Shown piece by piece: positions 1-61,096 of a stretch of 64,000 nt of DNA. Position 1 is the stretch's first letter; each line of letters begins with the position of its first letter. The notes under the pieces were generated by a model that made no database searches, was not told the origin of the DNA, and saw only the letters and a program-made list of their open reading frames with translations. Source of the DNA: a virus; the IMG/VR virus record IMGVR_UViG_3300029554_000001; one strand, 5' to 3'. The translations under genes were made by a program, and so were the position numbers.

Positions 1-3000
1 GAAGGGGCCAAAGAAAGTACTTATGATGATAAGGGAGAGCTTTTACAATAGGGTATAAAAGATTTCTTGGCTGGCTTATCTGGTGACAAAGAATAGTTGC
101 ACAACGCTGTTTTAGCGCTGGTAGAACAAATAGTTCAAACCGCTGGTGTTGATATTGATGCAAAACAGCAAATGAGCGAGGTTATATCTCAACAATCTAT
201 TAATGTCCCTATAAAATATAAAGGAGAAGAGCGGAATAGTACGTTAGAAAGTGCAATCACTGGAACTTCAAGTGCTAAATATCAAGCTGTTTTAGAAGAA
301 CAAAGAAGTAAGATGGCTGGAGGGTTATCTGAAGGATTCCAACGTATTCAATCTGCATTAGCATTTCAACAAACTGGAACAGCAGGGGATGAAGCTGTCA
401 AGCAAGCAGTTGAGAGAATAAATTGGCTCGCTGATATTGTAAGTGAAATAGGTGGCAATTCTGAGCTAGAAGAAGGACTTCGTAAAATAGCAGAAGGTAA
501 TCCTCGGTTTACTGGAATGGACGCAAACACTATTGCAAATTCTATTTCTAAAATTTATGCTTTTTCCGAGGGGATGGACGCATCTCTTTCTCATAATTTA
601 AACAATTTAAACCAAGCGAGATAGGCACAAGGACTTAAACCTATCAAAGAAGAAAAATACAGAGAAAAATTCTTCAAAGAAAATCCTGAAATAGCTCAAA
701 AATATGAAGAATCTAAAGCTGCAAGAGAACGTTATGATTCAGTCGAATCTGACAAGGTAAGTGACAAATTACAAGCGTTCTTTTCTGTTGTTGGACAAAC
801 AGAAGAAGGGGTTAATAAGTTTATTACAGTTCTTGCTAAAGCTTACGAGAATTTGAACGGAACTATTTCTAAAGTTGTAAAAACAGATGAGGGAGACCGT
901 AGAGCTACTGCTTCTGCTCAAAGATGGGTGGAAGATACTGTAGAATATAGAGTGAGTTCTTCTGGCAATGCCATTAACCCAAACAAAGGAGTGAATGCTC
1001 CCTATTATCAAAGAGAGGGTATCAGAGGTTAGGATGTAAACTGGGAAGAAATTACAAGTAATCCTTCTCCTGCTTTAACTACCAATTTGTAGAACAAAGC
1101 TGGTTTAACTGGTAATATTTATGATGGTAACAGTCCCCAAGAAAATGCTGAGATTGCAAAAAGTATTCTTGAACAGAAAAAGAAAGAGCTTGCAAGAGTA
1201 CAAGCTTTAGTTGCTAATCCTAAGAGTGAAGCAAGTAAAAATAAAAATTTAAAACGTATTCAAGAAATTTAGGCTGAAATAGATTTTCATTATAAAAACT
1301 GGGATGAACTTGTTATGGCTCAAACCCCAGTTGTTAGAAAAGGTAAAAAGAATACAGGAAAAGATGATTTTAATGTTCCTGTTGCAACGCCCTTGAATCC
1401 TGAAGCTGAAAGAATCAAGAATTTAAAAGAAAGTGTAAAACAATCTGGTTTTTCTCAAGGGTCTTCTTTTACTGCTAAAAATTCTGTTAGGCGGACTTTT
1501 GGTGGAACAATTACTGGTATAAAAGGAGAAGGAGCTCGGCAAGTTATTGAAGCTCTTTTAGAAGACGGTAAAACTGTTAAATATACGTTTGATAGTTTAT
1601 TAAAATAGCTTATTACTTACTCAGAACAAGCTGCAACAACAGTTGAGGATGTTTCTGAACAAATTAAAACCAATGTAATTCAAGATTCTCAACAAATAGA
1701 ACAAGCAATTGAATCTACTCCTACTATGGCAAATGAAACGTCTCAAACAGAAAAAGCTTTACAACAAGAAGAGGCGGCTATAACCGATGTTAATACTGCT
1801 TTAGATAAACATGAAACAGAAGTTTTATCTGCGGCAGATGCAGAACAACAAAAGATTTTAGTGTCTCAAGATTTAGTTAAATAGTTAACTAAAGAAGAGG
1901 GCGCTTTAGATAAAGTAAGTGAAAGCGCCAAAGAAGCTGAAATTCAAAAAGGTGTTACATATACATATAAAGATTTGCAATCTTATGATGATGCAACACA
2001 TACTTATACCGATACTAATGGTAATAAGTTAAGAAGTATTACTCAACTTGGTGGAGCTTTAAAGGGCTTTATTCCTTCTGCAACAGCTATTGCTGACGAA
2101 AAAGCTTTTATGGCTGCTATTGCTAACACTCCTAAAGGAGAACAATTAACTGCTGAAAAAATTGGCATGACCGCGCAAGACTTTGCTAAAAAGAAAAATG
2201 CAATTATAAGTAGGGAAAAAGGCAATTTAGAGCATGAGGTTTTTGACCTTTTAAGTAAGACTGGATTTTCTGGAGTTGAAGGTTTTGCTGGAAAAGATGT
2301 TGAGGTAAAATGGAACGGTGCTACAGAGATAGTAGATGCTCAAGAACAATTCGCAAGAGTATTAAAAGAAAAAGCAGACCTTTTATCCAAGCTTGGTATT
2401 GACAATGCTGAACAACTTTTATTACAAGCTGTCGAGAGTTATACTAAAGCAATAAATAACGCTCATATTCAATTAACTCCTTTCTCTGAAACTCCTATGG
2501 CTGCGAGTTTTAGTGGTCCAAAAGGAACTTTTGATTATTCTTTTACACCCGACTAGATTGCAAGGAGTTCTGATGGTTCTCCACAGAATTTTATTCTTGA
2601 TACCAAAACTGGTAAGACTTATGGTACAGAAAGTTTCCAACTTGCAGGACAATTGTACGGTGTTTTAGCTAATGCTCAAAACCCTGAATTCCAAAAATTA
2701 TATCAAGAAAGTGGAATTGACACAGATAAAGATTTTTCACTTTTTATCGCCGATGTTAAAGATGGATTTACTCAATTAATTCAACACATGGCTTTAACTG
2801 AAGAGGAATTTTACGACCTCCTTGTTAGAGCAAATGATATTATAGATGGCAAGGCTGAACCTTTAACTAAAGATGAACAAGCAGCTCTCATGAATAGAGA
2901 GATGACCACAGGTAGAGTTTTTGGTAGGTCAGAATCTCCTGTATCTGAAAAAGCTGCTAATAATAATTTTGTTTCTTACGCTCCTGATGAAAATGGTAGC

Positions 3001-6000
3001 ATTGATAAAAGAGAGCAAGCTATTATTGGTAGTTATTTAACTGAGTATCAGAAATTAATAAATTATCAAACCCAATTAAATAATTTAAAGAAGCAACAAG
3101 AAGAATTAGCCCAAAATGGTGTCGGTTATACTAGTGAAGAATCACAAAAACTTGAACAACAAATATCGACCATGCAATCTACAGTTAATCTTCAAAAGAA
3201 GATTATGGCGGAAAAGAATCTTGATTATAAGGTTTTAAACACACCTCGGGAAGCTGACAAAGTTGCAATAGGGAATGTTCTTTTATCTGACAAGGGTAGC
3301 AAACTTGCTACGCTGCAATGGGCTAAAATAAATGCGCTTAGTAGTAATAAGCAGAGAAAAAATGACACCAGTGTTACTACTCAGCAAAATACAGAAGCAA
3401 CAAAGGATTTAGATTTACTTTTAAGTCAATATAAAGAACTTCTAAGTCTTCAAAATTAGTTGAAAGAGTCTAACATTAAAGCTGAAAGTTTAACAGGGGA
3501 CAAGCAAGCCGCTCAACAAAATGCTTCTGCTAATTTGCAAGAAAGAATTGATAAACTTCGTGAAATTTCTACTCTTACTGGTGAAATAACAGATGAGAAG
3601 AGAATTGAAGAAGAAATTACAAAAGCCACTTATTTAACTGAGAGTGAAAGAGCTAAGAAATTAAATACTCTTAGAACTACAGTAGGAGAAGCAAATCAAA
3701 AGAATTTAGACATTGACACTAAATATGCTCAAGCGGCAAGAAATAATAACCCAACTCTTCAAAATACTTTAACTGGTTATTATAGAAACCTTGAAGAACA
3801 AGGTAGAATTGAAAGAGAAATTGCTAGAGCAGAAAATAAAGGAATGTCTTTAACTGGAAATGCGGCTATTGAAAATAAATCCTTTATTCATTCTCTGCAA
3901 AGTTAGAAAAACAATTTAGCAAACCAATATAAATATGACGAGCAAAAGAAAACTTTAAATGGTATTGAATTAACAGAAGAGCAAATTAACAAATTAGAAC
4001 AAGAAAGAACTCGTATCTTAAACAACAACCAAATTGAGATGGATAGAGTTGGAAATTCTGTTAATCAAACTAAAGGCTTTTTAACTCAACTTAAGGATAA
4101 TTTTAAAGATAGCTTTTCTCAAATTGGAATGGCTATAATGCAAATATTTTCTTTCCAGTAGATATAGAAAGTATTTAATGATTTTATTTCTGCTACTGAA
4201 AGACTTGACTAGAAAATGGTTGACCTTCAAATTGCAAGTGGTTATACCAAGAGTAATATTCACGATATGATGCTTGAGTTTAATGACTTGGCAAAAGAAA
4301 TCGGTAAAACTACTGAAGAAATTGCTGAAGCTGCAAACGATTGGCTTCGTGCTGGTTACGAAGGACAAGAAGCATCTCAATTAACTAATGCTTCTATGCA
4401 ATTAAGTACGCTTGGTATGATTAATAGCGCTGATGCTACGAGTTATCTGATTAGTGTGCTTAAAGGATGGAAGTTAGAAGCAACCGAAATTCAAGGAGTA
4501 GTGGACAAATTAACTGCTGTTGACATGCAGGCCGCTATAAGTGCTGGTGATTTGGCAGAAGCTATGTCTCGTGCTAGTAATTCTGCACAAATGGCTGGTA
4601 CAAGTTTAGATAGATATATTGCGTATCTTACCACTATTACAGATGTAACTCAAAAGAGCGCTGCGTCTGTTGGTGAATCTATGAAAACGGTTTATGCACG
4701 TTATTAGAACATTGCCGCTGGTAAATTTGTAGCTGCTGAGTCTGATATTGAAAGCGAGAATTATAATGCCGATGAATGGGCTAACTTAAATGATGTTGAA
4801 AAAGCTCTTGGTGCGTTGGGTATTAATATTAGAGATTCTGTATCTAGCTTTAGAGACTTTGATGATATTATGGATGAAATTGCTAGCAAGTGGAATACAT
4901 ATACAGACGTTCAAAAATCTGGTATTGCTACTTCTCTGGCTGGTGTGAGACAGCGTGAAAACTTGCTTACCTTGTTTGAAAACTGGGACGCTGTTGAAAA
5001 ATTTGAAGAAATTTCTACTAATGCATATGGCACTGCTATTGAAAAAATGAAGTCTTATACTGATAGTGTTGAAGCTGCCAAGAATAGAGTTACTGTTGCT
5101 CTTGAAAAGTGGGTTTTAGCTCTTAATCAGTCTGATACTTTGATTTGGTTCTATAATGCTGTTGCAGACGTTTCTGATAATCTTGTAGCATGGGCGGGAG
5201 CTATTTTACTAGCAACTGCTGCAATGAACTCTGTTGGTTTTGGAAGTACAATGCAAAATGCATGGTCTAAATTTGTTTCATCTTGTATTAATGTTTCTAT
5301 GAAACTTGATAAAATGAATATTTCAACTCAGGGATATTTTACTCAAGGCGGAAGACAAAGTTTAGGAGAATCTTTAAAAGCAAATTATACTGAATCGTTT
5401 AATGTGGCTCTTAAAGAGAATTACGCAAAAAGCTTAACTAATACTATTAATAGTTTAGATAATTTAACTGATAGTACTAAAAAGATATTGGTTGATGGTT
5501 ATGTTCCAATGCAAAATTCCATGCTTAATTACAATACTAAAATAAAAGAAAATATTGCCAGTATTTTAAAAAACACTGCGCTTACCGACGAGTAGGCGGC
5601 ATTACAGCTACGAGAAAATTTGGCTGACCAAAACAATGCATGGGTAGATGCTATGTTGTCTACTATAGATTAGGAAGAGCTTCGTTTAAGGACTGAACAA
5701 ATCACTCAAGGTCAAAGAAGCTTGACTGATGAAGAAAAGCTTTAGATAGCCACAGAAGAATTGGCAAGAAGACGTAATGATGCGGCAGTCAGAACTGTTG
5801 CAGATGATTTAGAAGGCTCTTCTAGGATAAGTCCTCAAAGAGCGGCTTTAAAAGGTGGCGCAACCATGGTTGGGTCTGGTCTTGGTGCTTTAGCTGGTAT
5901 GGCTATTGGAGAAAATCTTCTTGGTGGTGGTTGGGCAACTTCTTTAGGAACCATGATAGGTATGGGTATTGGTGGAAAAGCTACTTCCACTATGGCTCTT

Positions 6001-9000
6001 GCATTTGCTGACGCTATGGCGGCAGGAGGTTCTATTTTTACTGGTATGAAGGCAGGCGCAATGGCTTTAGGTCCTGTTCTCGGTATTGGAGTTGCGGCTT
6101 TAGCTATTGGGGCTGGTTATGCTTTGTATAAAAAGCACCAACAAAAAATGATAGAAGAAGCTAAAACTGCTTTTACAGATGCAGCAGAAGAATTAACTAA
6201 TGCCAAATCTTTACAAGCTACCGCTTAGAAATATGATGAACTTTCTAAGGGTGTTGATTCTTTGGGAAGAAATGTTTCTCTTACTGATGAAGAATACGAA
6301 AAATTCCTTGATTATAGTAATCAATTAGTAGAAGCATTTCCTGAATTACGTATTCGTACAGATGAAAATGGCAACGCTATTGCTGATATGGGTAATGAAA
6401 TGGAAACCACTTCTGATAAGGTTAAGGGGTTAATAGATTCTTTACAAACATTGGCAGATTAGAGAATGGTTATGGGTTCTGATGGTGAAAAAGTATTACA
6501 AGATACTTTAGATACTGCGGCTCAGGAATATAAAGATGCGCTTTCAGATTTGAATAATGCAAGGGCTGACAGGGCTAATAATTATACCGATGTAATGGCT
6601 TTACAACAACAAAGAGACCAAGCACAAGAAGAATTAGACAAAGCCCGTGAAGATTACAATGATGCCGAAATAAAACAGCTTCAAGATGAATTAATCAATG
6701 CACAAAATAAATTGGCTGGATATCAGCAAAGACAAGCAAACGGAGAAAAGAATTTAGGTAGTGTCATAGTTCTTGCGCAAGATAATGTTGATAGAGCTAA
6801 AAGAGCTTATGAAAATAAAGTTGGACATCAAGATATTAATACCCTTGAAAATCAAGTTGCTGACCTTGACGTTAAGATAAAAGAAGCTCAAGCTGAAAAT
6901 AACGCTGGTGAAGCTGCTGTTGATGCAGCTCAAAATGCTTATGATAGAGCTATTATAAGTGCTAAAGAAACATTAAGTGAATCTGGTAAGGCTTATGCAA
7001 GACTTATTGGGGCTTATGAAGATGTTGATGATGTAACCAGCAACTTGTTTGATAATGCTATTGGTTCTATTGATGCTGTTGATAAAGCTGGAAATGCCTT
7101 GTCTCCTGAAATGTATAAGCAAAAAGTTAGAGACATGATTAATTCTGTCAATGGTCTTGTTTCTGATGAAACTGTAAAAACTTTAATTGAAGCAACAGAT
7201 GAAAAAATAAACACTGATATGACTGTTGCAGATGCTAATAAAGCTAGAACACAATTAAAGAAATATCTTGAAGATACTTTCCCGAATATTGAAGATGATG
7301 AAAATTTGATGAAAATTGTGGTTGGAATTGGATTTGAAGTTGTTGATGGTGAAATTGTTGATAAATAGAACATAGCACAACAATTTAAAGACAAGTATGG
7401 ATTTAGTAAACAACCACGGGGTATTACAGAGGATTATTTTAATTCTCTTACTGTTTCTCAAGGTCAAAAACTGTTTAATTGGATGGGTACAGATGGTTAT
7501 TTCTCTAATGGAGTGAATACAAATCAAAGCATTGTTAATTCTATGTTTTACGCAGATAGAGAAACTCCAACTAAATTAACTGGTGAAAATGGGTTAATTA
7601 ATAAATATCTTGAAGATATGAATGCTATGAATGACCTTGAAGCTAAGATTGATGAAGTTTTTAACGGTGATAAATACGATTTAAAGAACTCTAATCTTAA
7701 CGAACTTTTCGCCGAATTTCCTGAAACTGTTAGGAACAGTTTAAGTCAAGTATAGGAAGCCCTTAATAATGGAGACATTGATAAAAATGGATTAGCTGAT
7801 TAGCTGAGGGCGACTTATGATAATGCTTATTCTACTGTTTTGGACGAAGGTAAAAAGATTGCTGAAACTATGTCTTCACAATATTTTTCTGATTTGGAAT
7901 TACCTGACGGCTATATCAAATCTTGGTCTGAATTAAAAGAAGCTTTTTCTGATGTTTCTAGTATTTTTGACCAACTTGCTGATGCAAGAGAGGAAATGGC
8001 CTCTTCTGGCAGATTAAGTATCGAAACCACTCTTGAACTTCTCTCTACAAATGCTGATTATATTAATGCTTTGGAGATTGAGGGAGAGAATATTGTGCTT
8101 AAAACTGACGCCGAAGAAATAATGAATAAAGTTAGACTTTAGACTATTGCTGTTAGTTTACAAGCACAGATTCAAGAAGATAATTTAAGAGTTGCACAAT
8201 TAAAGAATCAACTTCAAACTTTAATGTTGTCTGGTACTTATATTGAAACTTCTGATGCTTTGGTTGAATCTACCAAGGCTAAAGTTTATGCTTATGATTC
8301 AGAAGGAGAAGCTCTTGCTAATTTAGCTAATCAATATTTAACGGCTGCGAATGCTGCTTCTTTGTTGAATAGAGCCCAAAATGGAGAAACAGTAGATATA
8401 GGCAGTGTAAAAGCTGTTAAAACTATTAAGTACACTCCTACAGATAAGTCGGCTTTGGAAAGTAAGACTATTGATTTATCTGGTAATACTGAAGCTCTGC
8501 AAAAATAGATTGAAGTTACCAAGTCTGAGTTGAAAAGTTTGGTTGGTAGTTTTGACGAAGTTGTTACTACAGATAAAACTGGCAAGGTTACTGGTTATGA
8601 TGTTAAATTTAAGACCCATACTGATAAAGATGGAAATATTCATTATGATGAAGGTAATATTGCTATGCGTGAGCACTTGCTTTATAGTGTTTAGGACATG
8701 CTTGAGTCTGGTAATTTAGCTAAAGCGTTCAAGAAAGGTTATACAAAACCAATAAAGAGTGCTGGCAAAGCTGCGAAAGATACTAAAGATAAAGTTCTTG
8801 ACCTTCTCAAAGCTTATGATTCTTTAATCGACAAAGAATGGGAAGCAATGAAAGTATTTGATGAAAATACTTTAACTCCTACTGGATATACCCAATATTT
8901 TGAAAAGAAGAGAGCAAGTCTTGAAAAATTAGCGGCTTATTATGAAGGTATGATGCAAAATACCAATCTCACAGAAGAAGAGAGATTAGATGCAGAAAAG

Positions 9001-10001
9001 AATTATATTGAGAATCAAAAAGCTATTAATAACCTTGATGATGAAGAGGTTGAAGACAAGTATAAGATTCTTGAATTATATGGAGCTTCTATTAATTCTT
9101 TGATTTTGATGAAGCAGCAATTAGTTAAGACTTCTGACACATATGAAGAACTTCTTGAGAATCAGAAAGACCTTAATAATCTGCTTCAAGACGAGATTGA
9201 TTTGCGTAAAGAGGTTTCTGAATGGCAACAGAAGTTAAGTGACCGTGAACTTGATTATGTAAAAGGAAGCGCGTGGAGTAATAGTTCTGCTTATGATGCA
9301 GCTATGAACGCTTCTCTTGCAGAAATTGAAAAGTAGATTGAAGCTACTAAAGCTTCTATTCAATTTAATTTTAGTCAAGCTGTTTATGGTTATATGACTG
9401 AAGGTATGAGTGAAATGGAAGCTCGTGCTCATGTTGCATTTGGTAATAGTGATTATTCCAAGGCATATCGTGAAGCACAGCAAGAATATCTTGATTTAAT
9501 TGACTCTAAGACTGAATATGTTGTTAATAGAACTTCTGCACAAATTGAAGAACTTTCTAATAAGCTACAACTTCTTGAAGATTCCAAACCTCAAGAGTGG
9601 ATTAGAATTTCTGATATTGAAAGCTACTATGCAAGTAGGAGCACTTTATTGCAAAATCAAGTTAGTGTTTATCAGAAGGCGTTGGAAGATGTGTCTGATT
9701 TAACTGATGAACAAATTAAAGACCTTGTTGATGGCTTAAATGAAGCTACGGTTGCTTTACATGAAGCTAAGATAAATGCTTTGGAAGATAAGACCGAGCT
9801 TCAAGAAAAGCAATATGATGCAATTGTTTATAGAATTAATCTTTATAAGGATGAGCTTCAGGATGCTATTGATGCTATTGAAAAGGCTTATGAAGATGAG
9901 ATAAAACCCTTGGAAGATGCCAATAAAGAGCGTCAAAGAGCTATAGAACTTGAAAATCTTCTCTTGGCTAAAAAGAACGCCAATAAAGAGAAGGAGAGAG
10001 T
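1..10001 (+). CDS. tail tape measure protein, exon 1 (5' partial, continues upstream of window; TAG read as sense)
   Basis: Frame 1 is open from nt 1 to the splice site with no TAA or TGA and 27 in-frame TAG (hand count). TP901-type tape-measure core at ~4300-4700 (AGYEGQEASQLTNASMQLSTLGMINSADATSYLISVLKGW...DLAEAMSRASNSAQMAGTSLD). Gly-rich hydrophobic segments at ~5850-6130. Long coiled-coil Q/E/K-rich stretches. Confidence 0.8.
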
Positions 10002-11394
10002 GAACCAAAATATGCTCTCTATAAAGATGGCTATATAAGTCAAACGCCAGAGATGGCAGAGACTTAGGAAAGACTTAATATGATTTGGTTTTATTTTAGG
10101 GAAAGGAGGAAATATGGGTTTAATTTATCAAGCTTATTTTAAAACTAATGGCAAAAGTTATATTGGATAGACAAGTAGAAATAATTTAGAAGACAGAAAA
10201 AAAGAACATTTACAAGCTTCTAAAGATAAGCCTTATCTTTTTTATAATGCTATCAGAAAATATGGTTGGAACGACATTGAATGGAGTGTTTTAGAAGAAT
10301 GCGATAATGAAGAATTAAATGAGAAAGAAATTTTTTATATAAAGAAATATAACACTTATATAGGATTTGATAATTGCAATGGTTATAATATGACAGAACG
10401 GGGAGATTGTATTAATCATTGCATGTTTGATACTAAAGATAAAATAAACGAATTGTTAGAAGAATATAAAAAATGTGGTAGTGTAAATGAATTAGCTAAA
10501 AAGCATGATTGCGGCTACACTGTCATTTATAATATTTTAACTGGTATTATTTGTTCCGAATTTACTGGTTTCTATTATAACGATAAAACCTTTTTGAAAA
10601 AATATATGAAAAAAGGCTTGAAATATACTAATGAACAAATAGATGAAGTAATTCAAAGAAATAAAAAAGGAGAATCTAATTCTTATATTTCAGAACAAAT
10701 GAATGTTCCTATTAAATGGGTTCAAGATATTTTATCGGGACGAATTATGTCAAAAAGAACTGGAATTAAACATATCACAAGAAATGAAAGACAATTATAT
10801 AATCCTGTAAATTCAAAGCGTTCTAAAGAAGAAGTTTTAAAGATGGTTGAAGATTATTATACAAACAAGCTATCGTCAAAAAAGATTTGTGAGAAATATA
10901 ATATTGTCTCTGCTCGTTTGAACGAAATCCTATCTGGTAAAACATGGAGTGCAATAACTCATTTAACAGAAGAGGATTACAAAGAAGAAAAATTAAAACG
11001 TAATCCTCCTAAAGAAAAAGCGAAAAAGAAATCCCTTTATTTATATACAGATAAGGATATTTTAGACATGGTAAATTTGTATAAGTTAGGTTATTCTAAA
11101 AAAGAGATAGCTGAAAAATATAATACAACAGAAGGATATATTTACAAAATTGTCACTGGACAAAGAAGAAACGATATAACTCATATTAAATAAATCATAT
11201 TAAGAATCCTAAGAGACTGTAATGGTTTTTATAGTAATATAAAGACCTTCGCCATCGTATTGTTGAAATATACAATATAAGATACAGTCCGAACTTACGA
11301 TATAATCTTGAAATAATAATGAAACGTAAGAGATAGGAAGAAACTCCTATCCGCTATTATTTTAATTAATAATAGTCATTAAAGTAACAGAATG
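10002..11394 (+). mobile_element. group I intron carrying a GIY-YIG homing endonuclease gene, inserted in the tape measure gene
   Basis: P1: exon AGAGAGU (9995-10001) pairs with GCUCUCU (10014-10020), with a U.G pair at the cut. P10: 10010-10013 pairs with exon-2 GUAU (11395-11398). R-like AAGAGACTGTAA (11211-11222) and S-like AAGATACAGTCC (11279-11290) give GACTGT/ACAGTC as P7. Terminal G at 11394. Splicing restores the frame (...KEKERV|YRKGLGWVFESNP...); exon lengths sum to a multiple of 3. Confidence 0.7.
10114..11193 (+). CDS. GIY-YIG homing endonuclease (intron-encoded, one in-frame TAG)
   Basis: RBS AAAGGAGGA then ATG. N-terminus is MGLIYQAYFKTNGKSYIG[TAG]TSRNNLEDRKKEH...YNAIRKYGW...E..YI..YN, the GIY-YIG module. 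The C-terminus has repeated HTH-like modules (ILTGIICSEFTG, ILSGRIMSKRTG, ILSGKTWSAITH, IVTGQRRNDITH). TAA stop. Confidence 0.85.
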
Positions 11395-12778
11395 GTATAG
11401 AAAAGGCCTTGGTTGGGTGTTCGAATCCAACCCAACAAAATTGCGTGAAGCTCAAAAAGACCTTGACGATTTCTATAAACAAGACCGTCTTGATGACCTC
11501 AACAATACGAAAGATGCAGAGCAACAAATTCTCCAAGACCGTATAGATGCTTGGGACAAATATCTTGAGCAACTTGAATGGGATTATAAGGAATATGAAC
11601 GTCTCGAGAATGAACGCATATTGAAAGAGCTTATGAATGCGAACTCCGAAGAAGAGATTCGTGCTCGTATTACAGCGGATATGCAGAAGTTTAATTCTAA
11701 TGTTCAATAGAACTACAAGAATTATACTACGATATTCCAAGACAACTTACTTACGCCTTATCGTCAAGCCAATGAACAATTAGCAGAATTGCGTAGACAA
11801 AGACTTGAATTATTAGACACTTCTGATTTCTATAATAAGAACAATAATCAAAATGGGTATATTAAAGAAGATGACCTGAACACTTATGATTTCTCTGACC
11901 TTGACATGAATACAGACTATGCTGCAAAAATGTTGGCTGCAAGGGATGAAGGAGAATTTAAGAAATGGGCTGCTTACCGTGATGAAAAAGCTCGTAGAAT
12001 GGGCATTACTCTTGATGGTAGTGGTTATGGTTATGATAAAGCTGGTAACAAGTTTAGATATCAAAGTAATGATGAACTTTATCAGCAATGGCTGTCTGGA
12101 CAGGGAAGGACCAATTCTTCTAATAGTACTCCAAATAGAGTTACTTCTTCTTCAAGTAATTCCAGTAGTAGTTCTAGTAGAAATAATTCTGGTAGTAGTT
12201 CAAGTGGGTCTAATAAAAACACTCCTACAATTGTTAAGCCCTCTCTAGGTGGTAGCGCAAGCAGTTCTTCTTGGGGCGGAAGTGACATTGGTACAGCAAT
12301 GCTCAATGCCAAGACTTCTGAGTAGTTCTGGCGTTTGGCAGACCAAAGAACTGCTAAAATTAAGCAAGCGAAAGCTGCTGGACAAGACACAAGTAAATGG
12401 CCTACGAACCAACAATTGTATGACCAGTGGTTGAAGTTGCATCCTAACACTAACAAATCTGGATTTACTGTAACTCCTTATGCTACTGGTATTGAAGAAG
12501 GACCAGTAACTTATACAGGACTTGCGATGTTACATGGTACGCCTTCTAAGCCTGAGTATGTCTTGAATAGTGACCAAGCTTATAATTTGTTACGCAATAT
12601 GGCAACCACGAGACTTCCTGAGATGGAACGCACTGGAACTGACAATAATTGTGGTACACAGTATATTGTTCAAGGTGATGTTGTACTTGAAGGAGTTAAT
12701 GACCCTGCCAAGTTCTGGAGTGGAGTAACTACAGCAATGGGGTCAAGGTGGAATGTAACTCGTAAAACCAGAGGATAA
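11395..12778 (+). CDS. tail tape measure protein, exon 2 (TAG read as sense)
   Basis: Frame 2 is open from the splice acceptor to TAA at 12776-12778, with 2 in-frame TAG (11708, 12323). Ser-rich linker at ~12100-12290. Typical TMP C-terminus (...LAMLHGTPSKPEYVLNSDQAYNLL...). Confidence 0.75.
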
Positions 12779-12831
12779 ATTTACCAAAAATAAAATCTTC
12801 AAAAAGAGGATAAAAAATTTGGAAAAGGTTA

Positions 12832-12860
12832 TTGACAATTAAATAAAAATAGCTTATAAT
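12832..12860 (+). promoter_or_regulatory. sigma70/sigmaA-type promoter (perfect consensus)
   Basis: TTGACA (12832-12837), 17-nt spacer, TATAAT (12855-12860), between the tape measure stop and the next structural gene. Confidence 0.7.
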
Positions 12861-12875
12861 AAGAGCAAGAAAAAA

Positions 12876-12917
12876 AGGGGTGTGGTGTGGAACAAAAACT
12901 CGCCACACCTCATCCCT
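12876..12917 (+). promoter_or_regulatory. long leader hairpin downstream of promoter
   Basis: AGGGGTGTGGTGTGG (12876-12890) pairs with CCACACCTCATCCCT (12903-12917), about 14 bp with one mismatch. No U-tract follows. It sits between the -10 box and the RBS AAAGGAG of the 12951 gene. Confidence 0.5.
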
Positions 12918-12950
12918 TAGACGAAAAAATAACGAAAGGAGTTAAAAGAA

Positions 12951-15900
12951 ATGATATATAAAGCATCTTCGCTAAGTCCAAACTTGAATGAAATAGATAT
13001 TTTATCTACCACTCGGAACCCATTTTAGGCTTAGGTTAACACCCTTGGAACATCTGTAAAAGCTTATTCTATCAATTTTTTGTCGGGAGATGGCGCTACA
13101 ATGATTCTTAATTAGCCTTCTCAAGCACTAGGACAAGAAATTAGGAATAAAGAGTAGCTTTCTTTAAATTTAACCGTGGATTCTTCTGGTAATTTTGTTA
13201 CTTTTAAAGAAGAAGGGAAAAAAGGATTATCAACGACAGCTTAGTGTGAAGAAAATTAGTCTTTTCAAAACGGAAAAGATTATCAATGGAATATTAGGAT
13301 GTATGAAAATCATTCTCCAAGGACAACAGACGAAGACCCAACAACTTTAGTTTGCTCTGGTTTTACCGTTGGTTCTACTACTTCTGTTATTTGGGTGGAT
13401 TTAAGTGGCATTAGTAGCGAAGAAACTAAGAAATTAGTTAAAGACTAGCTTAAATATGATAGATGGATAGAGATATCTGCTTCAAGTAAAAACGATGGCA
13501 TGATGGCTATCACTCTTCCAAACGAAGATAATTTGGCTTATCCTACTACTTGGCCTTATAGAGAACGTAGACAAATTAACTGGGTTTATACAGATTTAGG
13601 TTGGGATAAAGATGTTATAAAAATTGAACTCACTGAATCTTTTACATATAATTATACAAATGGTAAAACATTTACTCTTTATAACGTTTCTGATTAGCAT
13701 ACTTTAAATAATTTTTATGTCGAGCCCAATGATGATATTGAATTAGGCAATTATATTTCGTTAAATAGCGATGATAGTGTAAAAAGGAAAATTATTGGAT
13801 ATGGGCAAGAAACTGGCGAAATTAGATTATAGGAAGGTTTTGTGACCGTTCCTAAAAATGGAGATACTTATAAACTTTGGACAAAAGATTTGACTTCATC
13901 TTCTTCGCAATTTTCGCAAAAAACTTACCACAGTTCTGCCGAGAGAAAAGTAGGTGGAGCTCCTATTACGAATCCAAATTTTAAAATTATGACTTCTTAT
14001 TGGAATAGTGAAGCAGACCATCAAATTTTTGTTCAGCCAAATATAAATATTAAATCAGATACTTTAAACCCTCCTCAAATTGTTTGGGAAAATGGCGTGA
14101 GGTTAAATATAACACAAAAAATTAGTACATTAGGACAATATGTTGCAGGGAAGAAAACTGATATTACTTTTAATAAACTTGATAATACTCAATGGTTGTT
14201 AAAAGGAAATTGCAAAATTGCAACTCAAAGTACAGGTGATATTTAGCAAATAATTGTTCCTCAAACTGATTACACAGTTTATACTGATTTTATGGATTCT
14301 ATTCCAAATGCTGTTTTATATGCTCGACAAGCGCCAACATTAGGGATTAAATATAAAGATTACCGTGAATTGGATTTGGAAAATATACCGTATATAAGTA
14401 TTGACTAGTCTGTTCCTGCTCCATGGAGAGATGTGGCTTTTTTGGGTACATGGGATTCTATAAATAATGTTGAAATTAAATATTATCATTATTATTTATA
14501 TTCGATTGATAATTATAATAACGAAACTTTAATTGCTGAATCTGATGATATTTACGACTCTTCTCTTGAATGGAATTTTAAAGGTTTTGAGACAAACAAC
14601 TTCTATAAAGTTAGAATAACCATTCATGATAAATATGGTAAAGCATATAGTGAAGAAAATACTTTTTATATTGAATATGCAGTTTATAGCTCTGTAGTTC
14701 CTTTGGCTAATTCTTTGATTTGTGATGAACAAGCCATAAAACTTGAAGTAGTTAGTCCTGTTTATGTTATTTCTACAGATAAAGGCACAGAAAAAACAAT
14801 TACTTCGAATGATGTGTATTTAAGTAGTAATTCAAAATATTATTACGCAGACACAACTTCTGGAAGGGTGTTAAATTACACTCAAGTTGCAGATGCAAAC
14901 AACACCCCCATTTAGATTCCAGAGGTGTTTTCTTTTTTTACAAGATTTAGATTTCCATATATAACTTCTGATAACAAGGTTGGTTTCTTTAATAACATTA
15001 CAGGAACTGATTTAAAAACATTAATGGAAATTGCTCATGCAAGTTATACTCAATTTTATTTAAGTTAGGTAGACACTGTTCTTTATAATGAACTTTATTC
15101 TACTTTATATACAAGACAAGACAATCAAGCTCTTGCAGATGCAATTCCACTTTATCCTGACGGAATTTCTATTGTTTTGTATTCAGATGAAACTACTCCT
15201 ATAAAAGACAGTGATGGTAAAATTGTGTATTATACTTTAAGTAGTTATACAATGTCTTCCACTAAAATTGTCGTAGAAGAGAAAATTGATACTCCTGTTA
15301 CATCTTTTGACCATTATGTTTATTATGATAAGGTTACTAAAGATGAAATTGGTTCGTCAACTTCTTTAAATAATGGATAGCTTGATAGACGTTCGATTTA
15401 TCTTTCTATTTTCTCAGATGAAAATTCTGCGGATGAATACAAAAAATTACTTTCATATAATAAAGAAACAGGAGAACTTGTTATTGAAAGTAGTTTAAAG
15501 AGCGATAGTTATAATAATCTTAATTATAAAGCATACACTCTTAAGTCTGCAAATAATTATATTCCACTGCCATCTTCTACATCAGGTGATATATCTCTTG
15601 GCGGAGATGTTTATACTGTAAAAGTTGGAGGATTGGATTTACTTCTTGTTGACGAAAAAAATAAAATAATTCGTAAAAATCCTAATATGCTTAAAATGCA
15701 AGTATTTAAAAATGGTTCAAATGAACCTTTGGCTTGTTTTAATGGGGGCAAATCTACCAGTTATGATATACAAAGCATGTTAAGTAATATGACTGTTCCT
15801 GATAAATTTGGTTTCGCTCTTCAATACAAATATACAGATTCTAACAAAACTACATTAAAATATATGCTTGTAGAAAAATTTAAAGAAGAACCTGATTACA

Positions 15901-16970
15901 TGGATTAGAATATGGTTTATATTTTAACTAAAGATATTGTTTTTGCTCCTTTCGGGAAAGAAGCGAAAACTTATTATGTTGGTCAATATAAATATATTGT
16001 TAATGCAGATGGTTCTGCTGATTGGATTCTTTAGGTTGATACAGAATATTTGTACCTTGATGAAAGCGGAGATTACAAAGATGAAGAGGGCAAAGCTATT
16101 GATGTTGTAATTGATAAAGATTTGACTGAAGGAGAATCTACTGGTGGTGGTTAGACTTATACTTCTATTGCTACAAATTAGTATGATACTATTTTAGCTA
16201 ATGCTATAGCGGCAACAAAAGAAAATAGAATTTTTACTACAAATGAATATAATGAAGCGTTGGCAAATTATTTATCAGAACATAGCGAGGCTTACATCGG
16301 CTTTGCAATAAACGAAGCTGGAAATTCTATGTATTCTGAAAATGGGGTAATACAAAGATATAAGATTAACTCTTATACAGGAAATGTGTTAACTATAGAA
16401 AAAACCCTTCCTTACACTGGAACAATTTATGCGTATAGGATTTATTCTCGCAATTCAGAGACGGGGAATTATACATATGAAATAGCTTTGACTGTTGGAC
16501 TTACAGACAAAGGGATTGTTCCCAAAACATCTTTAGTGTATCTTTCAGTGACGAATGGCACAACAACATTAATAGATAAAAAGAAAATTTTAACCTACAC
16601 CGCCGATAAAAAATTAACTATTGAGGGTGGAGTTTCTATTTTACTCTCTGATTCTGACCTTAATTCTTTAACTTATACTGCTTATAATTATATCAGCAAT
16701 ACTTACACTGAATTGGGGAAAACTGGTGATGGTAAAATTATTGCAAGTGACCCAACAGGAGGTACTGTTAGTGGGCCTGTTAAATATCGTTGGGGGCCCA
16801 AAAACGGGTCAGGAAAAGAAGAATCAGATTATATTTGGATGCCTGATTCTCAAGCTGTTAAACAAACTAATATGGCTTAGATTTCTTAGAGATGGTTTGA
16901 TTTTAATTTAACAGTAGATAATTCTAAAGAAGTTCCTGTTAATTGTTCTATTGTTTTAGTTACAGAATAA
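12951..16970 (+). CDS. large virion structural protein, 1339 codons (function unknown; tail tip or receptor-binding candidate)
   Basis: RBS AAAGGAG then ATG 12951. A single frame links six ORF-track fragments (13500, 13842, 14433, 15177, 15633, 16260). 20 in-frame TAG by hand count, no TAA or TGA until TAA at 16968-16970. Confidence 0.75.
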
Positions 16971-20862: not shown

Positions 20863-20917
20863 TTTCTAATCGACAACTAAAAATAATTCAAAATTTTTAA
20901 AAGGAGACATTTAAATA

Positions 20918-21937
20918 ATGGGTATTGATATTTTTAGCATTAAGCCTAATGTGGTCACTCGTGACCTTAGTGGTAAGAGTTTTCTCATTTATGGAGAAAG
21001 AAAGAGCGGCAAAACTACAAATGCTTGTAAATTTCCCAAGCCTATTTTGCTTGGTTTCGAAAAAGGCTATGGTTTCTTGGATGGCATTATTGCACAGCCA
21101 ATTAACACTTGGAAAGAAGCTCTTGAAGTAAAGAAGCAGTTACTTAAAGATGCAGATGCGGCTGAAAAAGAAAATAGAGAAACAATCTTTAAAACGGTAA
21201 TTGTTGATACTATTGATATTGCCTACGACCTTTGTGAGAAGTATATCGTAGACAAGGAAGGTGTAGATTATCTTGATGAGACTGAAAAGATGCGTGGCTA
21301 TCGTGCTTTGTCTCGTGAGTATGATAAGTTTTTCCAAGAGATTGTTAAGGCTGGTTATACTTTGATTTGTATTTCTCATGCCACCACTAAGCAGATTAAG
21401 GAAAACGGTGAGAAATATGATAAGACTATTCCTACTGTACCCGACCGTGGATTCCTTGTTGTTTCTCGTCTTGTTGACGTAACTGGTTACGCTTCTTATG
21501 AAACTGATGAACAGGGTAATGTTCATTCCATGCTTACTATGAGAGGCAATAAGCATCTTGAAGCTGGTTCTCGTAGTCCTTATATGTCTGAATGTATTCC
21601 ATTTACTTATGAAGCATTGCGTGATGATATGGCAAAGGCTATTGATAAACAAAAGGCTAATGGTGCGACAGTTGTTGATAATGAGGTTAATCTCTTTAAG
21701 GATAACGAAGTTACCGAAGATGAAAAGAAGAGCGTTGATGAGCTTATTGCTGAAATCGGTAGCTATGTAAAGGCTATTCATAATACTGGTAGTACAGAAT
21801 ATAAGAAGATTATTGCAGAGTATCTTGGAAAGGGTAAGAGTGTAAAAGATTGCGATGAATCTCAATTGGATATGCTTTTACTTATTCTCGATGATTTGAA
21901 GGATTACTGTACTGAAAATAATATTACAGTAGAATAA
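20918..21937 (+). CDS. AAA_24/Sak4-like RecA-fold ATPase
   Basis: Walker A in LIYGERKSGKTT, Walker B-like VIVDTID. Overall pattern of phage Sak4-type ATPases. No TAG. Confidence 0.75.
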   Translation: MGIDIFSIKPNVVTRDLSGKSFLIYGERKSGKTTNACKFPKPILLGFEKGYGFLDGIIAQPINTWKEALEVKKQLLKDADAAEKENRETIFKTVIVDTIDIAYDLCEKYIVDKEGVDYLDETEKMRGYRALSREYDKFFQEIVKAGYTLICISHATTKQIKENGEKYDKTIPTVPDRGFLVVSRLVDVTGYASYETDEQGNVHSMLTMRGNKHLEAGSRSPYMSECIPFTYEALRDDMAKAIDKQKANGATVVDNEVNLFKDNEVTEDEKKSVDELIAEIGSYVKAIHNTGSTEYKKIIAEYLGKGKSVKDCDESQLDMLLLILDDLKDYCTENNITVE

Positions 21938-22014: not shown

Positions 22015-22710
22015 ATTATAGCACCAAGAAAAAATAGAAAATGTAGTGTTTGTGGCAAAATGTTCCCTTTTGAAGAAATTATCACCGTAAATGGTAAAAA
22101 TTATTGTCCAGTTTGCGGCAAATAGCCTGCCCATGATGCTAAAGATTACAGACTTTTAACAGATTATCTTTGGGATAACTTGGGTATGAGAGAGTGGGTT
22201 AACGCTTCTCTTGTAACCACTTATATAAAAAAGATAAAAGAAAAATATGGTTTGACTAATTCTCAAATTCTTTATACTTTATATTATATGTACGAGTATG
22301 CTGATAATCCAGCTCCTCCCATAAAGACAGAATCAGACATCTTCATGGTTGTACGTTATTTTGCTGAATCCAGAGATTTTTGGCAAAAATATAAAGAAAT
22401 GAAGATGACTAAAACTGAATTAATTGAATATGTTTTAACAAAACAGCCTGTTGCAATAGATGTAGCTCGTTCTGAAATTATTAAAAAGCAGGAAGAAGAA
22501 GAGGAAAGACGTAATAAACGCAATCACAAGGAAGAAATTTCTGCTGAAGATATTATTGATGATGGAATAGTAAACACAGATTTTATAGGAGATTATAATT
22601 TTAGAAAAGATTTGCAAAAGCAAAAGGAAAAAGATAATATGTTTTTATCAGAATTACAAAGAGATGTTCAAGAAATAATGGCTGAACATCCCGAAGAATG
22701 GGAGGCTTAA
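22015..22710 (+). CDS. zinc-ribbon protein of unknown function (start uncertain, possibly non-AUG)
   Basis: The frame is open from 21994. CSVCG...CPVCG zinc ribbon lies upstream of the first ATG. One TAG at 22120 joins it to ORF-track 22180..22710. RBS AAAGGAG at 22003-22009. Only ATT (22015), ATA (22018) or GTG (22009) are available as starts. Confidence 0.5.
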
Positions 22711-22711
22711 C

Positions 22712-24526
22712 TTGGCGGATTATAGAGATTATCAAAGCAAATCTGCAATTAAAGAAGTTCTTGGCTGTTTACTGTAGAATCCAACTTTATTAACAAGTAA
22801 TAAAATCGACAAAAAAGATTTTGTTGAAGCTTTCCATCAACTTTTATTTGTAGCGATAAACAATCTTTTTTCTCAGGGTGCGGTAAAACTTGACCAATAT
22901 ATTATTGATGACTACTTAAAGAATAATCTTCAATCTCTGTATAATATTTATACAAGGAATAATGGCAATCTTTATGTTGAAAAGGCTAAAGAATTAGCTA
23001 CACCAGAAAACTTTAATACTAATTATCAGGAGATGAAAAAGTTTTCTCTCCTTCGTGCTTATCTCAAGTCAGGTATCGAAGTTGATGAAATTTACAATCC
23101 TGATGAAGAAGACCCTGAAATTGCAGATGAACAAAGATATCAATTTAGTCAAATGACTATTGATGATATACTTAATTATTTTAGGCAAAAAGTATCTAAT
23201 ATTACTCAAGAATACAGCCCCAAAGTTGGGCGTGATAGTGTTAAAGCTGGTAGTGATGAAGCTCGAAAGCAAAAAGAAGAATGGAAGAAAACTCCCGCTT
23301 ATGGTTTATCTTACGCAAGTAATTATATGACTACCGTAACAAGAGGTATGCAACCACGAAGATTTACTGTTTGTTCTGCACGGACAGGTTTAGGAAAAAC
23401 GAGAGTTACTATTGCCAATCTTTGTCATTCTTTTACCCCTAAATATTGGGATTCTAATGTTGGAGAATTCGTAAAAAATCCAAATGGTACTCAAAATGCT
23501 GCTCTTTATATTGGAACAGAAATGGAGCTTATTACAGAGATTGAGCCTATTTTATGGGCCTATATTGCAGATGTTCCTCAGCAACATATTATGACTGGTA
23601 AGTATGTTGGGGATGAAGAAGAAAGAGTTGATGAAGCTATTAGAATTCTTCATGAAGAGGGACATATTTATCTTGAATATGTACCTGACTATGATATCGG
23701 AACTTTAGAGAATGTTATTGAACAACACGTTCTTCAACATGGAATAACTCATGTTTTTTTTGATTATATTCATGTAACAACTGATTTGATTAGTGAGTTC
23801 CAAGCTAATGCCAAAGCAAGAATGCAAATTCGTGAAGACCAAGTTCTTGCAAATTTAAGTTTGAAATTAAAAGACCTTACTCGAAAATACGATATTTGCA
23901 TTGATACTTGGACACAGGTTACGGGGGATTTTAAGAACGAGCAAAATCGTGACCAAACAATTGTGCGTGGTGCTAAAGCCATCATTGATAAAGCTGACCA
24001 TGGAGCAATTTTGTCAGAGGTTACGAAGAAAGAAGAAAAATATTTAGAGAAAATTTTGAGAAGTAAATTCTTAAAATATAAGCCTAATAGATGTTTATCA
24101 GTTTATAAAAATCGTGGTGGAGAATACAATAAAGTTAAAATTTGGTTGTATATTGAATATTCTACAATGCGAGTTCATGATTTGTTTTGTACTGATTATG
24201 ACTATGAACTTTTAGATATTCCTCAAACATTTACTCGTGTTGAAGAAGACCAAAAGGTTCAATTCTTTAACAATAAAGACTTCTTACGAAGTCAAATGAT
24301 TAACGATGCAGTTGATATTGCTCAAACTGCCAAGGAAGAAGGAACTTTTGATGTTTTTGAAGATACGGAAGAAGTAACAAAAAAAATTAAAGAAGCTCTT
24401 GAAAATGAAGAGGACCCATTCTTAGAATCTCCTGAAAACAGGAAATTTAGAATGGTAGAAGATGATGAAGATGATGAAGAAGAAAAGAAAGCTTTATCAA
24501 AAGAGGAAGAAGAAATAGATTATTAA
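22712..24526 (+). CDS. DnaB-like replicative helicase
   Basis: RBS GGGAGG then TTG 22712. DnaB N-domain-like segment (EVLGCLL[TAG]NPTLL...HQLLFVAI) with TAG at codon 22. Walker A SARTGLGKT, Walker B FFDYIH. Acidic C-terminus. Confidence 0.75.
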
Positions 24527-54214: not shown

Positions 54215-54252
54215 AATCATAGAGATTTACTTATTAAGAAAGGAAGTGGAAA

Positions 54253-55179
54253 ATGCCCTATAAAAAAAGAAAAGATAATTTGTGGTGTGTTTATAAGCAT
54301 ACAAGCCCTTCTGATGGAGTATATATAGGAATAACAAGTGATTATCCTTTAGCAAGATGGAGAAATGGTCGAGGATATGATTGTTGTGAAGTTATGAATA
54401 AAGCTATAAAAAAATATGGCTGGGAAAATTTTACTCATGAAATATTATTTGATAATTTAACAAAAGAAGAAGCTTGTTAGAAAGAAATAGAATTAATAGC
54501 CTTTTACAAAAATTAGGGACATTGTTATAATTTAGCTGAGCGGGGAACTAATGGATTAGCTTCAGAAGAAACTAAAAAGAAAATGTCTTCAAATAGACAG
54601 CGGAAAAACGCTCATGGTTGGCGGCATATTGTTTCTTCAGAAACTAAACAAACGGTAGCTAAAAAAATAAAAGGTATTAAAAGAAATTCAAAGACTAAAG
54701 AAAAATTAAGTAGCACGCATAGTAAAAAAGTTTATTAGTATAATTTAAACGGAGAATTAATTCAGGAATGGGACAGTGTATATCAAGCATCTAATATATT
54801 AGGATTAGCTCGAAGCCCAATTACACGTTGTAGATTATATTAGCAAAAAATTTATTAGAACTGTTTATGGCTGCTTGATTATATTGATGCTATATTAATA
54901 TAGAAATATTTAAACAATGAAATCATTATTCCTCCGATTAAAAATAAGTCTTTATTACAAAAGAAAGTAAGTTGTTTTTAGGATGAGAAAAAAATTAAAA
55001 CTTTTGATTCTATAAAAGAAGCTTCAAAATGGTCAAAAATTACTGAACAGCAAATTCGGTATGCTTGTAAAAACAATAAAATTGCAGGAGAATATTATTG
55101 GAAATATGAAGAAGATTATTTTGGTGACAATTATTTTCTTTATTGGGCCAATAATCAGGATAAAATAAAATAGGAGTAA
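54253..55179 (+). CDS. free-standing GIY-YIG homing endonuclease (8 in-frame TAG)
   Basis: RBS AAGGAAG then ATG. WCVYKHTSPSDGVYIGITSD...RW...G...KAIKKYGWENF..EIL is a GIY-YIG module. The frame continues through 8 TAG (hand count) to TAA 55177-55179. The C-terminal part has NUMOD/IENR-like DNA-binding repeats (YNLNGELIQEWDSVYQASNILGL..., KTFDSIKEASKWSKITEQQIRYACKN). Confidence 0.75.
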
Positions 55180-56440: not shown

Positions 56441-57193
56441 ATGAAAGAGCCTGTAAAAATTGGAGACGTTTTCGGTCGTTTGAAGGTTTTGTACAAGTGT
56501 GATTACTAGTATCATGGACCTAATCGGAAACGAGCTAATTTGTGGCATGTGCAATGTTAGTGCGAAAATAAAACAGAATTTGATGTTTTAACAAATAGTT
56601 TGACTTCTGGTAACACAAGGTCTTGTGGTTGTTTACAAAAAGAGGCTACTATTGAGAGTGGAAAGAAAAGAAGAAAATTAAACAAATATGATTTAAGTGG
56701 AGAATATGGGATAGGATATACTTCTAAAAATGAACCTTTTTATTTTGATTTAGAAGATTATGATAAAATAAAAGAATATGTTTGGGTATATAATAAAGAA
56801 AAATATCCTGTTACAACTGTTTATAAAAATAATCAGCCTCATTATTTACATTTAAAAAGATTTGTTTTAGATATTACTGACTCTAAAATAGATGTAGACC
56901 ATAAAAACCATGTTCCTTATGATTGCAGAAAAGAAAACTTAAGACCTTTAGAACATTATCAAAATATTGGTCATTGTAAAATTTATACTAATAATACTTC
57001 TGGTGTTAAAGGCGTAAGTTACGATAAAATGCGAAATAAATGGAAAGCTTCTTTAGTTGTAAATAAAGAAACTAAATTAAACAAACGTTTTGATACTTTT
57101 GAAGAAGCTGTAAAAGCACGTCAAGACGCAGAAGAAAAATATCAACAAGGATTTAGATACAATTCTGATGAAGATTTGTATAATAGAGGATAA
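56441..57193 (+). CDS. HNH-type homing endonuclease with AP2 DNA-binding domain
   Basis: ATG abuts the PARP TAA. 2 TAG (codons 22 and 38) join it to ORF-track 56600..57193. HNH region VDHKNHVPYDCRKENLRPLEHYQN. AP2-like SGVKGVSYDKMRNKWKASLVVNKETKLNKRFDTFEEAVKARQDAEEKY. Confidence 0.75.
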
Positions 57194-60131: not shown

Positions 60132-60217
60132 GCGGGTATGGTGGAATTGGTAGACACACTTGATTTAAGTTCAAATGTCTTGCAGACGTGAGGGTTCGAG
60201 TCCCTCTACCCGTACCA
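60132..60217 (+). tRNA. tRNA-Leu (anticodon UAA), type II with long variable arm, CCA encoded
   Basis: Hand-folded cloverleaf. Acceptor GCGGGTA/TACCCGT. D arm GTGGAATTGGTAGACAC. Anticodon loop TT-TAA-GT. Variable stem GTCT/AGAC. T arm GAGGG-TTCGAGT-CCCTC. A-CCA end. Confidence 0.85.
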
Positions 60218-60307
60218 TTCGCTTTTGCGGAACAAACTTGAGGCGAGGGAAGTTAGAAAACAGTAGTACCTGTACTATGAATTGATTTATAACTCGCCCA
60301 CATATTA

Positions 60308-60383
60308 CGGGGATTAGCGCAGTTGATAGCGCGCGTGGTTTGGGACCATGAGGCCGTGGGTTTGAGTCCCACATCTCCGACCA
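60308..60383 (+). tRNA. tRNA-Pro (anticodon UGG), CCA encoded
   Basis: Acceptor CGGGGAT/ATCTCCG. D arm GCGC-AGTTGATA-GCGC. Anticodon arm CGTGG-TT-TGG-GA-CCATG. T arm GTGGG-TTTGAGT-CCCAC. A-CCA end. Confidence 0.85.
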
Positions 60384-61088: not shown

Positions 61089-61096
61089 GGTAAATT

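Follow-up and report, generated by a model that had tools for sequence, protein, structure and literature searches.

Several described systems lie close to the element considered here. In the td intron of phage T4, a group I intron, the GIY-YIG open reading frame (ORF) of the endonuclease I-TevI is looped out from the P6 region. The tape-measure protein (TMP) genes of Bacillus cereus-group prophages contain group I introns of subgroup IA, which occupy several sites and have retargeted P1/guide sequences (Tourasse and Kolstø 2008, PMC2504315). The orf142 introns of Staphylococcus phage Twort lie in a gene that MT151386 labels 'tail tube protein', capsid and tail genes of Cluster J mycobacteriophages contain spliced introns (PMC3706429), and terminase introns are found in Bacillus and Lactobacillus phages (PMC4299906). 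The many introns of crAss-like phages include intron ORFs with reassigned TGA codons (Yutin et al. 2021, PMC7886860), and Borges et al. (10.1101/2021.08.26.457843) described a recoded group I intron endonuclease, for which they proposed synthesis only late in infection. Here we analyze a 64,000-nucleotide stretch of viral DNA (IMG/VR record IMGVR_UViG_3300029554_000001), referred to as the window; all features lie on its plus strand unless otherwise stated. We consider it very probable that positions 10002 to 11394 are a mobile phage-type group I intron carrying a homing endonuclease gene, inserted in the TMP gene of a phage in which TAG encodes Gln.

The window intron resembles td in the placement of its GIY-YIG ORF, in an extra hairpin between P7 and P3, and in its S element, GAUA(U/C)AGUC. 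Unlike td, whose host gene encodes an enzyme of nucleotide metabolism, it resides in the gene for a virion tail protein; it also has no P2 and only one P7.x hairpin, and its endonuclease differs from I-TevI in having a string of helix-turn-helix (HTH) modules and no PDB relative by sequence. The B. cereus-group TMP introns are similar in that they occupy several sites per gene, have adapted guides, and occur as intron-plus and intron-minus alleles in relatives, a likeness drawn from published descriptions. In contrast to them, the window comes from a TAG-recoded phage of gut and rumen metagenomes, its relatives' contigs measure ~120-220 kb, and the sites of its intron family fall within 24 nt. 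The Twort orf142 introns, like it, are group I introns of a phage and reside in a gene for a structural protein of the tail. The published recoded endonucleases likewise are intron-encoded and have reassigned stop codons, but there the codon is TGA, the phages are Agate and crAss-like phages, and one example lies in an early gene, whereas the window has TAG, read as Gln, in a late gene. TMP introns, retargeted guides and recoded intron endonucleases are already known, and the recoded endonuclease here is no first. A sequence-only reading of the window had stated that introns in virion structural genes are much rarer than in nucleotide-metabolism or polymerase genes; in view of the published TMP, tail-tube, capsid and terminase introns (PMC2504315, PMC3706429, PMC7886860), this was overstated. 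The additions made by the present locus are modest, namely a cluster of three insertion sites within 24 nt, the swap of an endonuclease in an unchanged ribozyme, and an intron lineage that is invisible to Rfam.

The frame of the host gene, with TAG taken as Gln, is open from the start of the window. Exon 1 (1..10001) holds 3,333 codons plus 2 nt, includes 27 in-frame TAG codons, and ends with U10001; its frame runs on to a TAA at 10036-10038. Exon 2 (11395..12778; 461 codons, two in-frame TAG codons and a TAA stop) lies in a different frame, which is open from 11366 to 12778, and at 11395 lacks both a start codon and its own ribosome-binding site. When 10002-11394 is removed and U10001 is joined to G11395, the two frames fuse to read …KEKERV|YRKGLGW…, or …KEKERV|YRKGLGWVFESNP… over a longer span. 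The predicted spliced RNA junction is GAGAGAGU|GUAUAG, in longer form …GGAGAGAGU|GUAUAGAAAAGG…. The PhageMin_Tail family (PF10145) matches exon 1 with 100.5 bits, which identifies the predicted product as a phage tail TMP; the same family has been recorded in the exon-1 product's homologue from a related contig, L003. The spliced TMP would have at least 3,794 amino acids within the window, the N-terminus being lost at the window edge. We observed in passing that the L003 exon-1 product alone has 3,816 residues, that a TMP of such size implies a very long tail, and that exon 2 encodes a Ser-rich stretch of low complexity.

The boundaries of the insertion are fixed by alleles that lack it. Two homologues with about 51% identity (P0036 and P0041) are uninterrupted across the junction, where they read …REKERVYRSGIGWTYETP… (KERVYRSGIGW). 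We further compared eleven IMG/VR loci with close TMP relatives. In four of these (L007, L008, L011 and L016; 87-97% identical) the protein is continuous over the junction segment, and in L007, L011 and L016 two fixed landmarks in the exons are 39 nt apart, whereas the window has 1,432 nt between them. This gives the insert a length of exactly 1,393 nt. It is missing to the nucleotide in these three loci; L008 is uninterrupted at the protein level. The intron-less allele of the L016 type reads …GAGAGAGTTTATCGTTAGGGCC…, with the insertion site at …AAGGAGAGAGTTTATCGTTAGGGCCTTGG…. In the window itself, G10002 and G11395 would permit the boundary to slide by one base, but the introns of L010 and L015 start with A, which places the 5′ splice site after GAGAGAGU. 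Intron-plus and intron-minus alleles are both present among TMPs that are 87-97% identical. Six of the first 10 nt of exon 2 differ between the two kinds of allele, and the differences, mostly synonymous, would fit co-conversion or self-immunity of the homing site.

The 1,393-nt insert can be drawn as a group I intron with its strands and junctions in the canonical order. In P1, the last 7 nt of exon 1 (9995-10001, AGAGAGU) form 7 bp with 10014-10020 (GCUCUCU), the guide sequence beginning 12 nt inside the intron, and the U10001·G10014 pair is positioned at the splice site. The internal guide sequence (10010..10020) comprises this P1 part and a P10 part, AUAU (10010-10013), which pairs with the first nucleotides of exon 2 (11395-11398, GUAU) in 4 bp, one of them G·U. 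P3 is a long-range helix between 10026-10031 (GAUGGC) and 11251-11256 that crosses P7 as a pseudoknot. P4 (10036-10041 with 10061-10066) encloses P5 (10046-10049 with 10054-10057), which has a GAGA loop, and is followed by a 2-bp P6 (10067-10068, GG, with 11208-11209, CC). The 11-bp P6a (10074-10084, CUUAAUAUGAU, with 11194-11204) closes the loop that bears the ORF. Both strands of P7 lie 3′ of the ORF, an R-like GACUGU at 11215-11220 and an S-like ACAGUC at 11284-11289. Between P7 and the 3′ strand of P3 there is an extra hairpin with a GUAA loop (P7.1, 11224-11247); P8 (11257-11278) is followed by J8/7, AAGAU. Downstream are P9 (11294-11299 with 11325-11330), P9.1 (11332-11351), P9.2 (11353-11376), and the conserved 3′ tail AAAGUAACAGAAUG with a terminal G at 11394. 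The R and S elements are AAGAGACUGU and AAGAUACAGUCC, compared with AaAGACUA and AAGAUAUAGUC in the consensus of RF00028, the group I intron model of Rfam; the S element resembles its consensus counterpart. The minimum-free-energy fold of 11205-11394 recovers P7, P7.1, P8, P9, P9.1 and P9.2 (z = -4.96). The insert thus has the P1 U·G pair, the terminal G and P10, the P3-P8/P7 and P4-P6 core, and the R and S elements of a group I intron. Given the extra hairpin between P7 and P3, its subgroup can be called IA-like only.

To obtain relatives, we searched IMG/VR with a pattern of 19 bases, TATAATCT-N50-80-AAAGTAACAGA, derived from the 3′ termini of TMP introns. It matches at least 119 loci; about half of the matches listed (~60) were judged true members, having a complete 3′ domain and, upstream of it, a 5′ core that matches, and ten compact introns without an ORF (~280-300 nt) are among the matches listed. 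Alignment A1 contains 29 non-redundant cores from which the ORF was deleted, and pairs were counted on the structure drawn for the window, with P7 as a pseudoknot. In A1, 91.6% of cells pair, compared with 33.8-39.0% after the 3′ partners are shifted by 1-3 columns; 49 of 63 pairs show two-sided, compensatory changes, and the covariation score of 0.523, compared with 0.185 for shuffled alignments, is reached in none of 500 shuffles. Individual core helices behave in the same way: P3 is paired in 98.3% of cells and all six of its pairs show compensatory changes, P5 is 99.1% paired with four of four pairs covarying, P4 and P6 are 100% paired (both P6 pairs covary), and P9, P9.1 and P9.2 are paired in 93-98% of cells. 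P7 hardly varies (4 of 6 pairs not at all) and shows one exchange of G-C to A-U.

A second alignment (A2), of 19 family members that all come from loci other than TMP genes, was used for a covariance model, R1. Because no TMP intron contributed to it, R1 is free of circularity with respect to the window, where its single match spans 11207-11394 over the full model length and ends on G11394 (117.2 bits, E = 2.6e-27); no other part of the window has a significant score. With an nhmmer profile built on the 5′ core, too, a single copy is found in the window, at 10021-10065. P7 is absent from the RNAalifold consensus behind R1, in which GACU is instead joined to the 3′ tail, so R1 serves as a homology detector only. 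In that consensus, columns 10-12 (ACU, from the 5′ strand of P7) are paired with columns 196-198 (AGU of the invariant 3′ tail AAAGUAAC); covariation cannot decide on this pairing because both segments are invariant, and it may be spurious or may point to a tertiary or alternative interaction close to the 3′ splice site. Neither megablast with 8600-13000 nor blastn with a family core gave a match in the INPHARED phage collection. The exact boundaries, the in-frame junction, and a conserved, covarying RNA structure are what these comparisons establish. They bear out the proposal of the sequence-only reading that a group I intron lies in the TMP gene: the break of the TMP frame at 10038 and its resumption near 11395, P1 with its U·G pair, the guide 12 nt downstream, the 4-bp P10, P7 after the ORF and the terminal G are all found where that reading had put them, and the comparison with intron-less TMP alleles that it had suggested yields a difference of exactly 1,393 nt.

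The pairing of guide and exon can also be followed across insertion sites. At site A, the exon sequence AGAGAGU of the window faces the guide GCUCUCU, and in two more distant TMPs (L066 and L096) the exon is AGAGGGU and the guide GCCCUCU. Site B lies 13 nt downstream (L003-5 and L014; exon GAGGGU, guide GCCCUC) and site C 24 nt downstream (L009; exon AUGGGU, guide GCCCAU). P10 differs as well, being GUAU/AUAU in the window and GUUUA/UAAAU in L066. Guide changes, therefore, track exon changes in five variants, at site A and at two neighboring sites, and three related introns are found within 24 nt of one TMP gene. One could envision that a single intron slid recently from one site to the next. 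However, the site A, B and C ribozymes share only ~70% identity over the core, and the intron at site C is closer to those of other loci; the three insertions, therefore, look like separate colonizations of one conserved TMP motif. The ORFs of the site-B and site-C introns are closed by other helices, of 14 bp and 12 bp, and encode an unrelated, non-GIY endonuclease that matches phrog_559, phrog_9084 and phrog_7140 ('intron encoded nuclease'). The stop codon of this gene lies just past the 5′ strand of P7, at the start of P7.1, so that the ORF overlaps the ribozyme core. An alternative drawing of the site-B and site-C introns, in which an upstream GACUGU/GACUAU serves as the P7 strand and the ORF lies in P7.1, was ruled out by the 14-bp and 12-bp helices that close the ORF and by a second copy, GACUGU/GACUAC, after the ORF at the position homologous to P7 of the window.

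The ORF in the P6a loop of the window intron (10114..11193) encodes 359 amino acids, with one in-frame TAG at codon 19 (10168-10170), and a Shine-Dalgarno-like AGGAGG, read from the sequence, lies 4 nt 5′ of its ATG (10104..10109). Residues 1-81 match the GIY-YIG family PF01541 with 33.9 bits (cut-off 22.6), the remainder contains several HTH modules (matches to HTH_7, HTH_28 and HTH_Tnp_1), and the ORF matches PHROG families of homing endonucleases (phrog_7168, 'homing endonuclease', at 1.8e-21). The GIY, YIG, Arg, Glu and Asn positions that we take to be catalytic in I-TevI are present by eye. A phmmer search of PDB sequences with the endonuclease gave no match at E <= 1, and NCBIfam returned nothing useful for any of the intron ORFs. 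Between three genomes, the ratio of nonsynonymous to synonymous changes (pN/pS) in the endonuclease gene is 0.12-0.22, and the ORF is intact over all 359 codons when TAG is read through; it is under purifying selection. In L010 and L015, the same P6a loop contains a different GIY-YIG gene, whose 397-amino-acid product is 27% identical to that of the window, whereas the ribozymes differ from that of the window at 0-2 of 201 positions in the 3′ domain and at 10 positions in the 112-nt 5′ part. A nearly constant ribozyme with endonucleases of such low identity indicates that the endonuclease gene was exchanged inside an unchanged ribozyme.

Read with the standard code, the region breaks up into many short ORFs. 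When TAG is treated as a sense codon, the summed length of long plus-strand ORFs rises from 15,182 to 19,079 residues and the minus strand is unchanged. TAG codons in the TMPs of relatives align with Gln in the window, and the YIG-TAG-T of the window endonuclease corresponds to YIGQT, with an ordinary Gln codon, in a homologous endonuclease. On these alignments, TAG is read as Gln. The sequence-only reading had described the GIY-YIG gene as active-looking, as placed in the manner of td, and as dependent on TAG suppression; the selected, uninterrupted ORF with its supra-threshold PF01541 match agrees with the first of these statements, the position of the ORF in the P6a loop ahead of the P7 strands with the second, and the YIGQT homologue with the third.

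These data suggest how the element might work. The transcript would fold into the P3-P8/P7 and P4-P6 core, P1 (AGAGAGU/GCUCUCU, with its U·G pair) would present the 5′ splice site, and an external guanosine would attack after U10001. P10 would then align exon 2, the terminal G11394 would be exchanged, and a continuous TMP mRNA would result; without splicing, translation would stop at 10036-10038 and the last 461 residues of TMP would be lost. The endonuclease would be made from its own ribosome-binding site and, by analogy with I-TevI, would cleave, during co-infection, TMP alleles that lack the intron, at a point close to the insertion site, and repair would copy the intron into the cut allele. 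Owing to the in-frame TAG, full-length endonuclease would appear only once TAG is decoded as Gln.

One alternative, which we regard as unlikely, is that the intron splices but has lost its mobility, the endonuclease being inactive or silenced by a TAG that acts as a true stop. With standard decoding, the TAG at codon 19 would indeed truncate the protein, and no suppressor tRNA is seen in the window. However, the TMP host gene contains 29 in-frame TAG codons, so late gene expression requires TAG to be decoded. The ORF, kept open in three genomes with the pN/pS given above, also speaks against this alternative, as do the GIY, YIG, Arg, Glu and Asn catalytic positions seen by eye, and the coexistence of intron-plus and intron-minus alleles among near-identical phages is what an active homing element predicts.

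Several observations count against a splicing, mobile group I intron in the TMP gene. The intron has no P2, its P6 is just 2 bp, and its P10 is just 4 bp including a G·U. P8 is paired in only 66% of A1 cells, its length being variable and its alignment poor. The aligned sequences were ascertained by the intron's own 3′-end pattern, which fixes two conserved motifs by design; the shuffle control ignores relatedness, which the slid controls offset in part, the structure being drawn on the window sequence. No tRNA with a CUA suppressor anticodon is present in the window, so the route of TAG decoding is not visible here. RF00028 finds no group I match in the window at its gathering score, nor in 9700-11700 or 11194-11400 at E <= 10. 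Lastly, we infer splicing from DNA alone, and catalysis, homing activity and the timing of expression are read in the same way.

The Rfam search had been put forward in the sequence-only reading as a check, and its negative outcome can neither confirm nor refute an intron of this lineage. The compact, ORF-less relative L126 likewise has no RF00028 match at E <= 10, and in 14 family loci the model at its gathering score found none of the pattern-matched family members, although it does find other introns in two of them. As controls, the ORF-bearing td intron scores 40.3 bits with RF00028, below the gathering score of 50, and three Twort introns score 64-101 bits. The negative is uninformative because L126 is also missed and td falls below the gathering score. 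The window intron is comparable to td in being an ORF-bearing intron that Rfam's gathering score excludes, but td is seen at E = 2.7e-8, whereas the window intron is invisible at E <= 10. R1 in turn detects neither td nor the Twort introns; the latter, at ~8 bits with R1, are, therefore, of a different ribozyme lineage. The 3′ part of the Twort introns is presumably arranged in a similar order (S element, GAAC, P9, P9.1 and a tail resembling GUAACAnAAUUG), and we take two of them to be ORF-less and compact. The P and Q core segments of the window intron are divergent, P4 and the Q segment being especially unlike the RF00028 consensus. As judged from its sequence, the window intron belongs to a ribozyme lineage beyond the reach of RF00028. 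On some contigs, introns detected by RF00028 (60-70 bits; L027 1570-1936 and 3439-3746, L045 4436-4765) stand alongside an Rfam-invisible family member; such phage genomes harbor several intron lineages at once.

The divergence of P and Q, too great for RF00028, together with the missing P2 and the short P6, could also be taken to mean that the ribozyme of a real group I intron is no longer autocatalytic, having decayed or become dependent on a protein. Many organellar group I introns need protein helpers. We find this improbable. All core helices are kept across the family, and the ribozyme shows only 0-3 differences in 201 positions of the 3′ domain and 3-10 in 112 of the 5′ segment despite endonucleases that are 27% identical. 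Moreover, TMP needs its C-terminal 461 residues, so that a loss of splicing should kill the phage.

Far less probable still, and to our minds barely worth entertaining, is that two separate genes flank a free-standing GIY-YIG gene and that TMP is made as two polypeptides without splicing: free-standing endonuclease genes do exist in the window (e.g., the GIY-YIG ORF at ~54250-55179) and public gene calls list the TMP pieces as separate proteins, but intron-less alleles are continuous exactly here and deletion restores the frame, a group I fold that is conserved and covaries is built from the ~310 nt of flanking non-coding sequence, exon 2 at 11395 lacks both a start codon and its own ribosome-binding site, and the guide sequence tracks exon changes. 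An intein, a programmed frameshift and a translational bypass are excluded by the stops in the TMP frames, by the ORF with its own ribosome-binding site, and by the conserved fold.

If the insert is a mobile group I intron, as we favor, then TMP should be annotated as one gene of at least 3,794 codons and not as two genes with a 'hypothetical protein' between them. Gene callers that use the standard code and Rfam both miss the intron-split TMP. A covariance model of the lineage would recover many unannotated introns of gut phages, which break gene calls as stop recoding does. With its intron-less alleles, three sites and two swapped endonucleases, the locus offers a natural series for the study of intron/endonuclease reassortment and retargeting, and it could show whether recoded stops time endonuclease expression. 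Current understanding is not overturned. One joint reading of all the observations, which we offer tentatively and would rate somewhat below an even chance, is that a large Rfam-invisible lineage inhabits phages of gut Firmicutes, that its ribozymes and endonucleases move separately, and that the TAG codons delay homing until late in infection. The 3′ signature of the family also occurs on GTDB genome contigs (L136-L145) from animal and human guts, binned as Oscillospiraceae, Lachnospiraceae, Agathobacter, Clostridia, Paludibacteraceae, Saccharibacteria and others; the contigs probably represent DNA of phages or prophages and give a hint of the range of hosts.

The surroundings of the TMP gene show how TAG is distributed along the window. 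The large ORFs after TMP are rich in TAG, like the late genes here, and have no significant Pfam match; the replication genes come next. The late genes include 27 TAG codons in TMP exon 1 and 20 in the following ORF (12933-16970), and the replication genes, an AAA_24 gene (20915-21937) and a DnaB-like gene (22679-24526), are almost free of them. Four tRNA genes, for Leu-UAA, Pro-UGG, Arg-CCU and Gly-UCC, lie at 60132-63429. The free-standing GIY-YIG endonuclease-like ORF at ~54250-55179 is located between two unrelated ORFs and contains eight in-frame TAG codons, and the ORF after next (56441-57193), an HNH/AP2-type endonuclease by eye, contains two. Most of their neighbors in the early region have 0-1 TAG; selfish endonuclease genes seem to be preferentially recoded.

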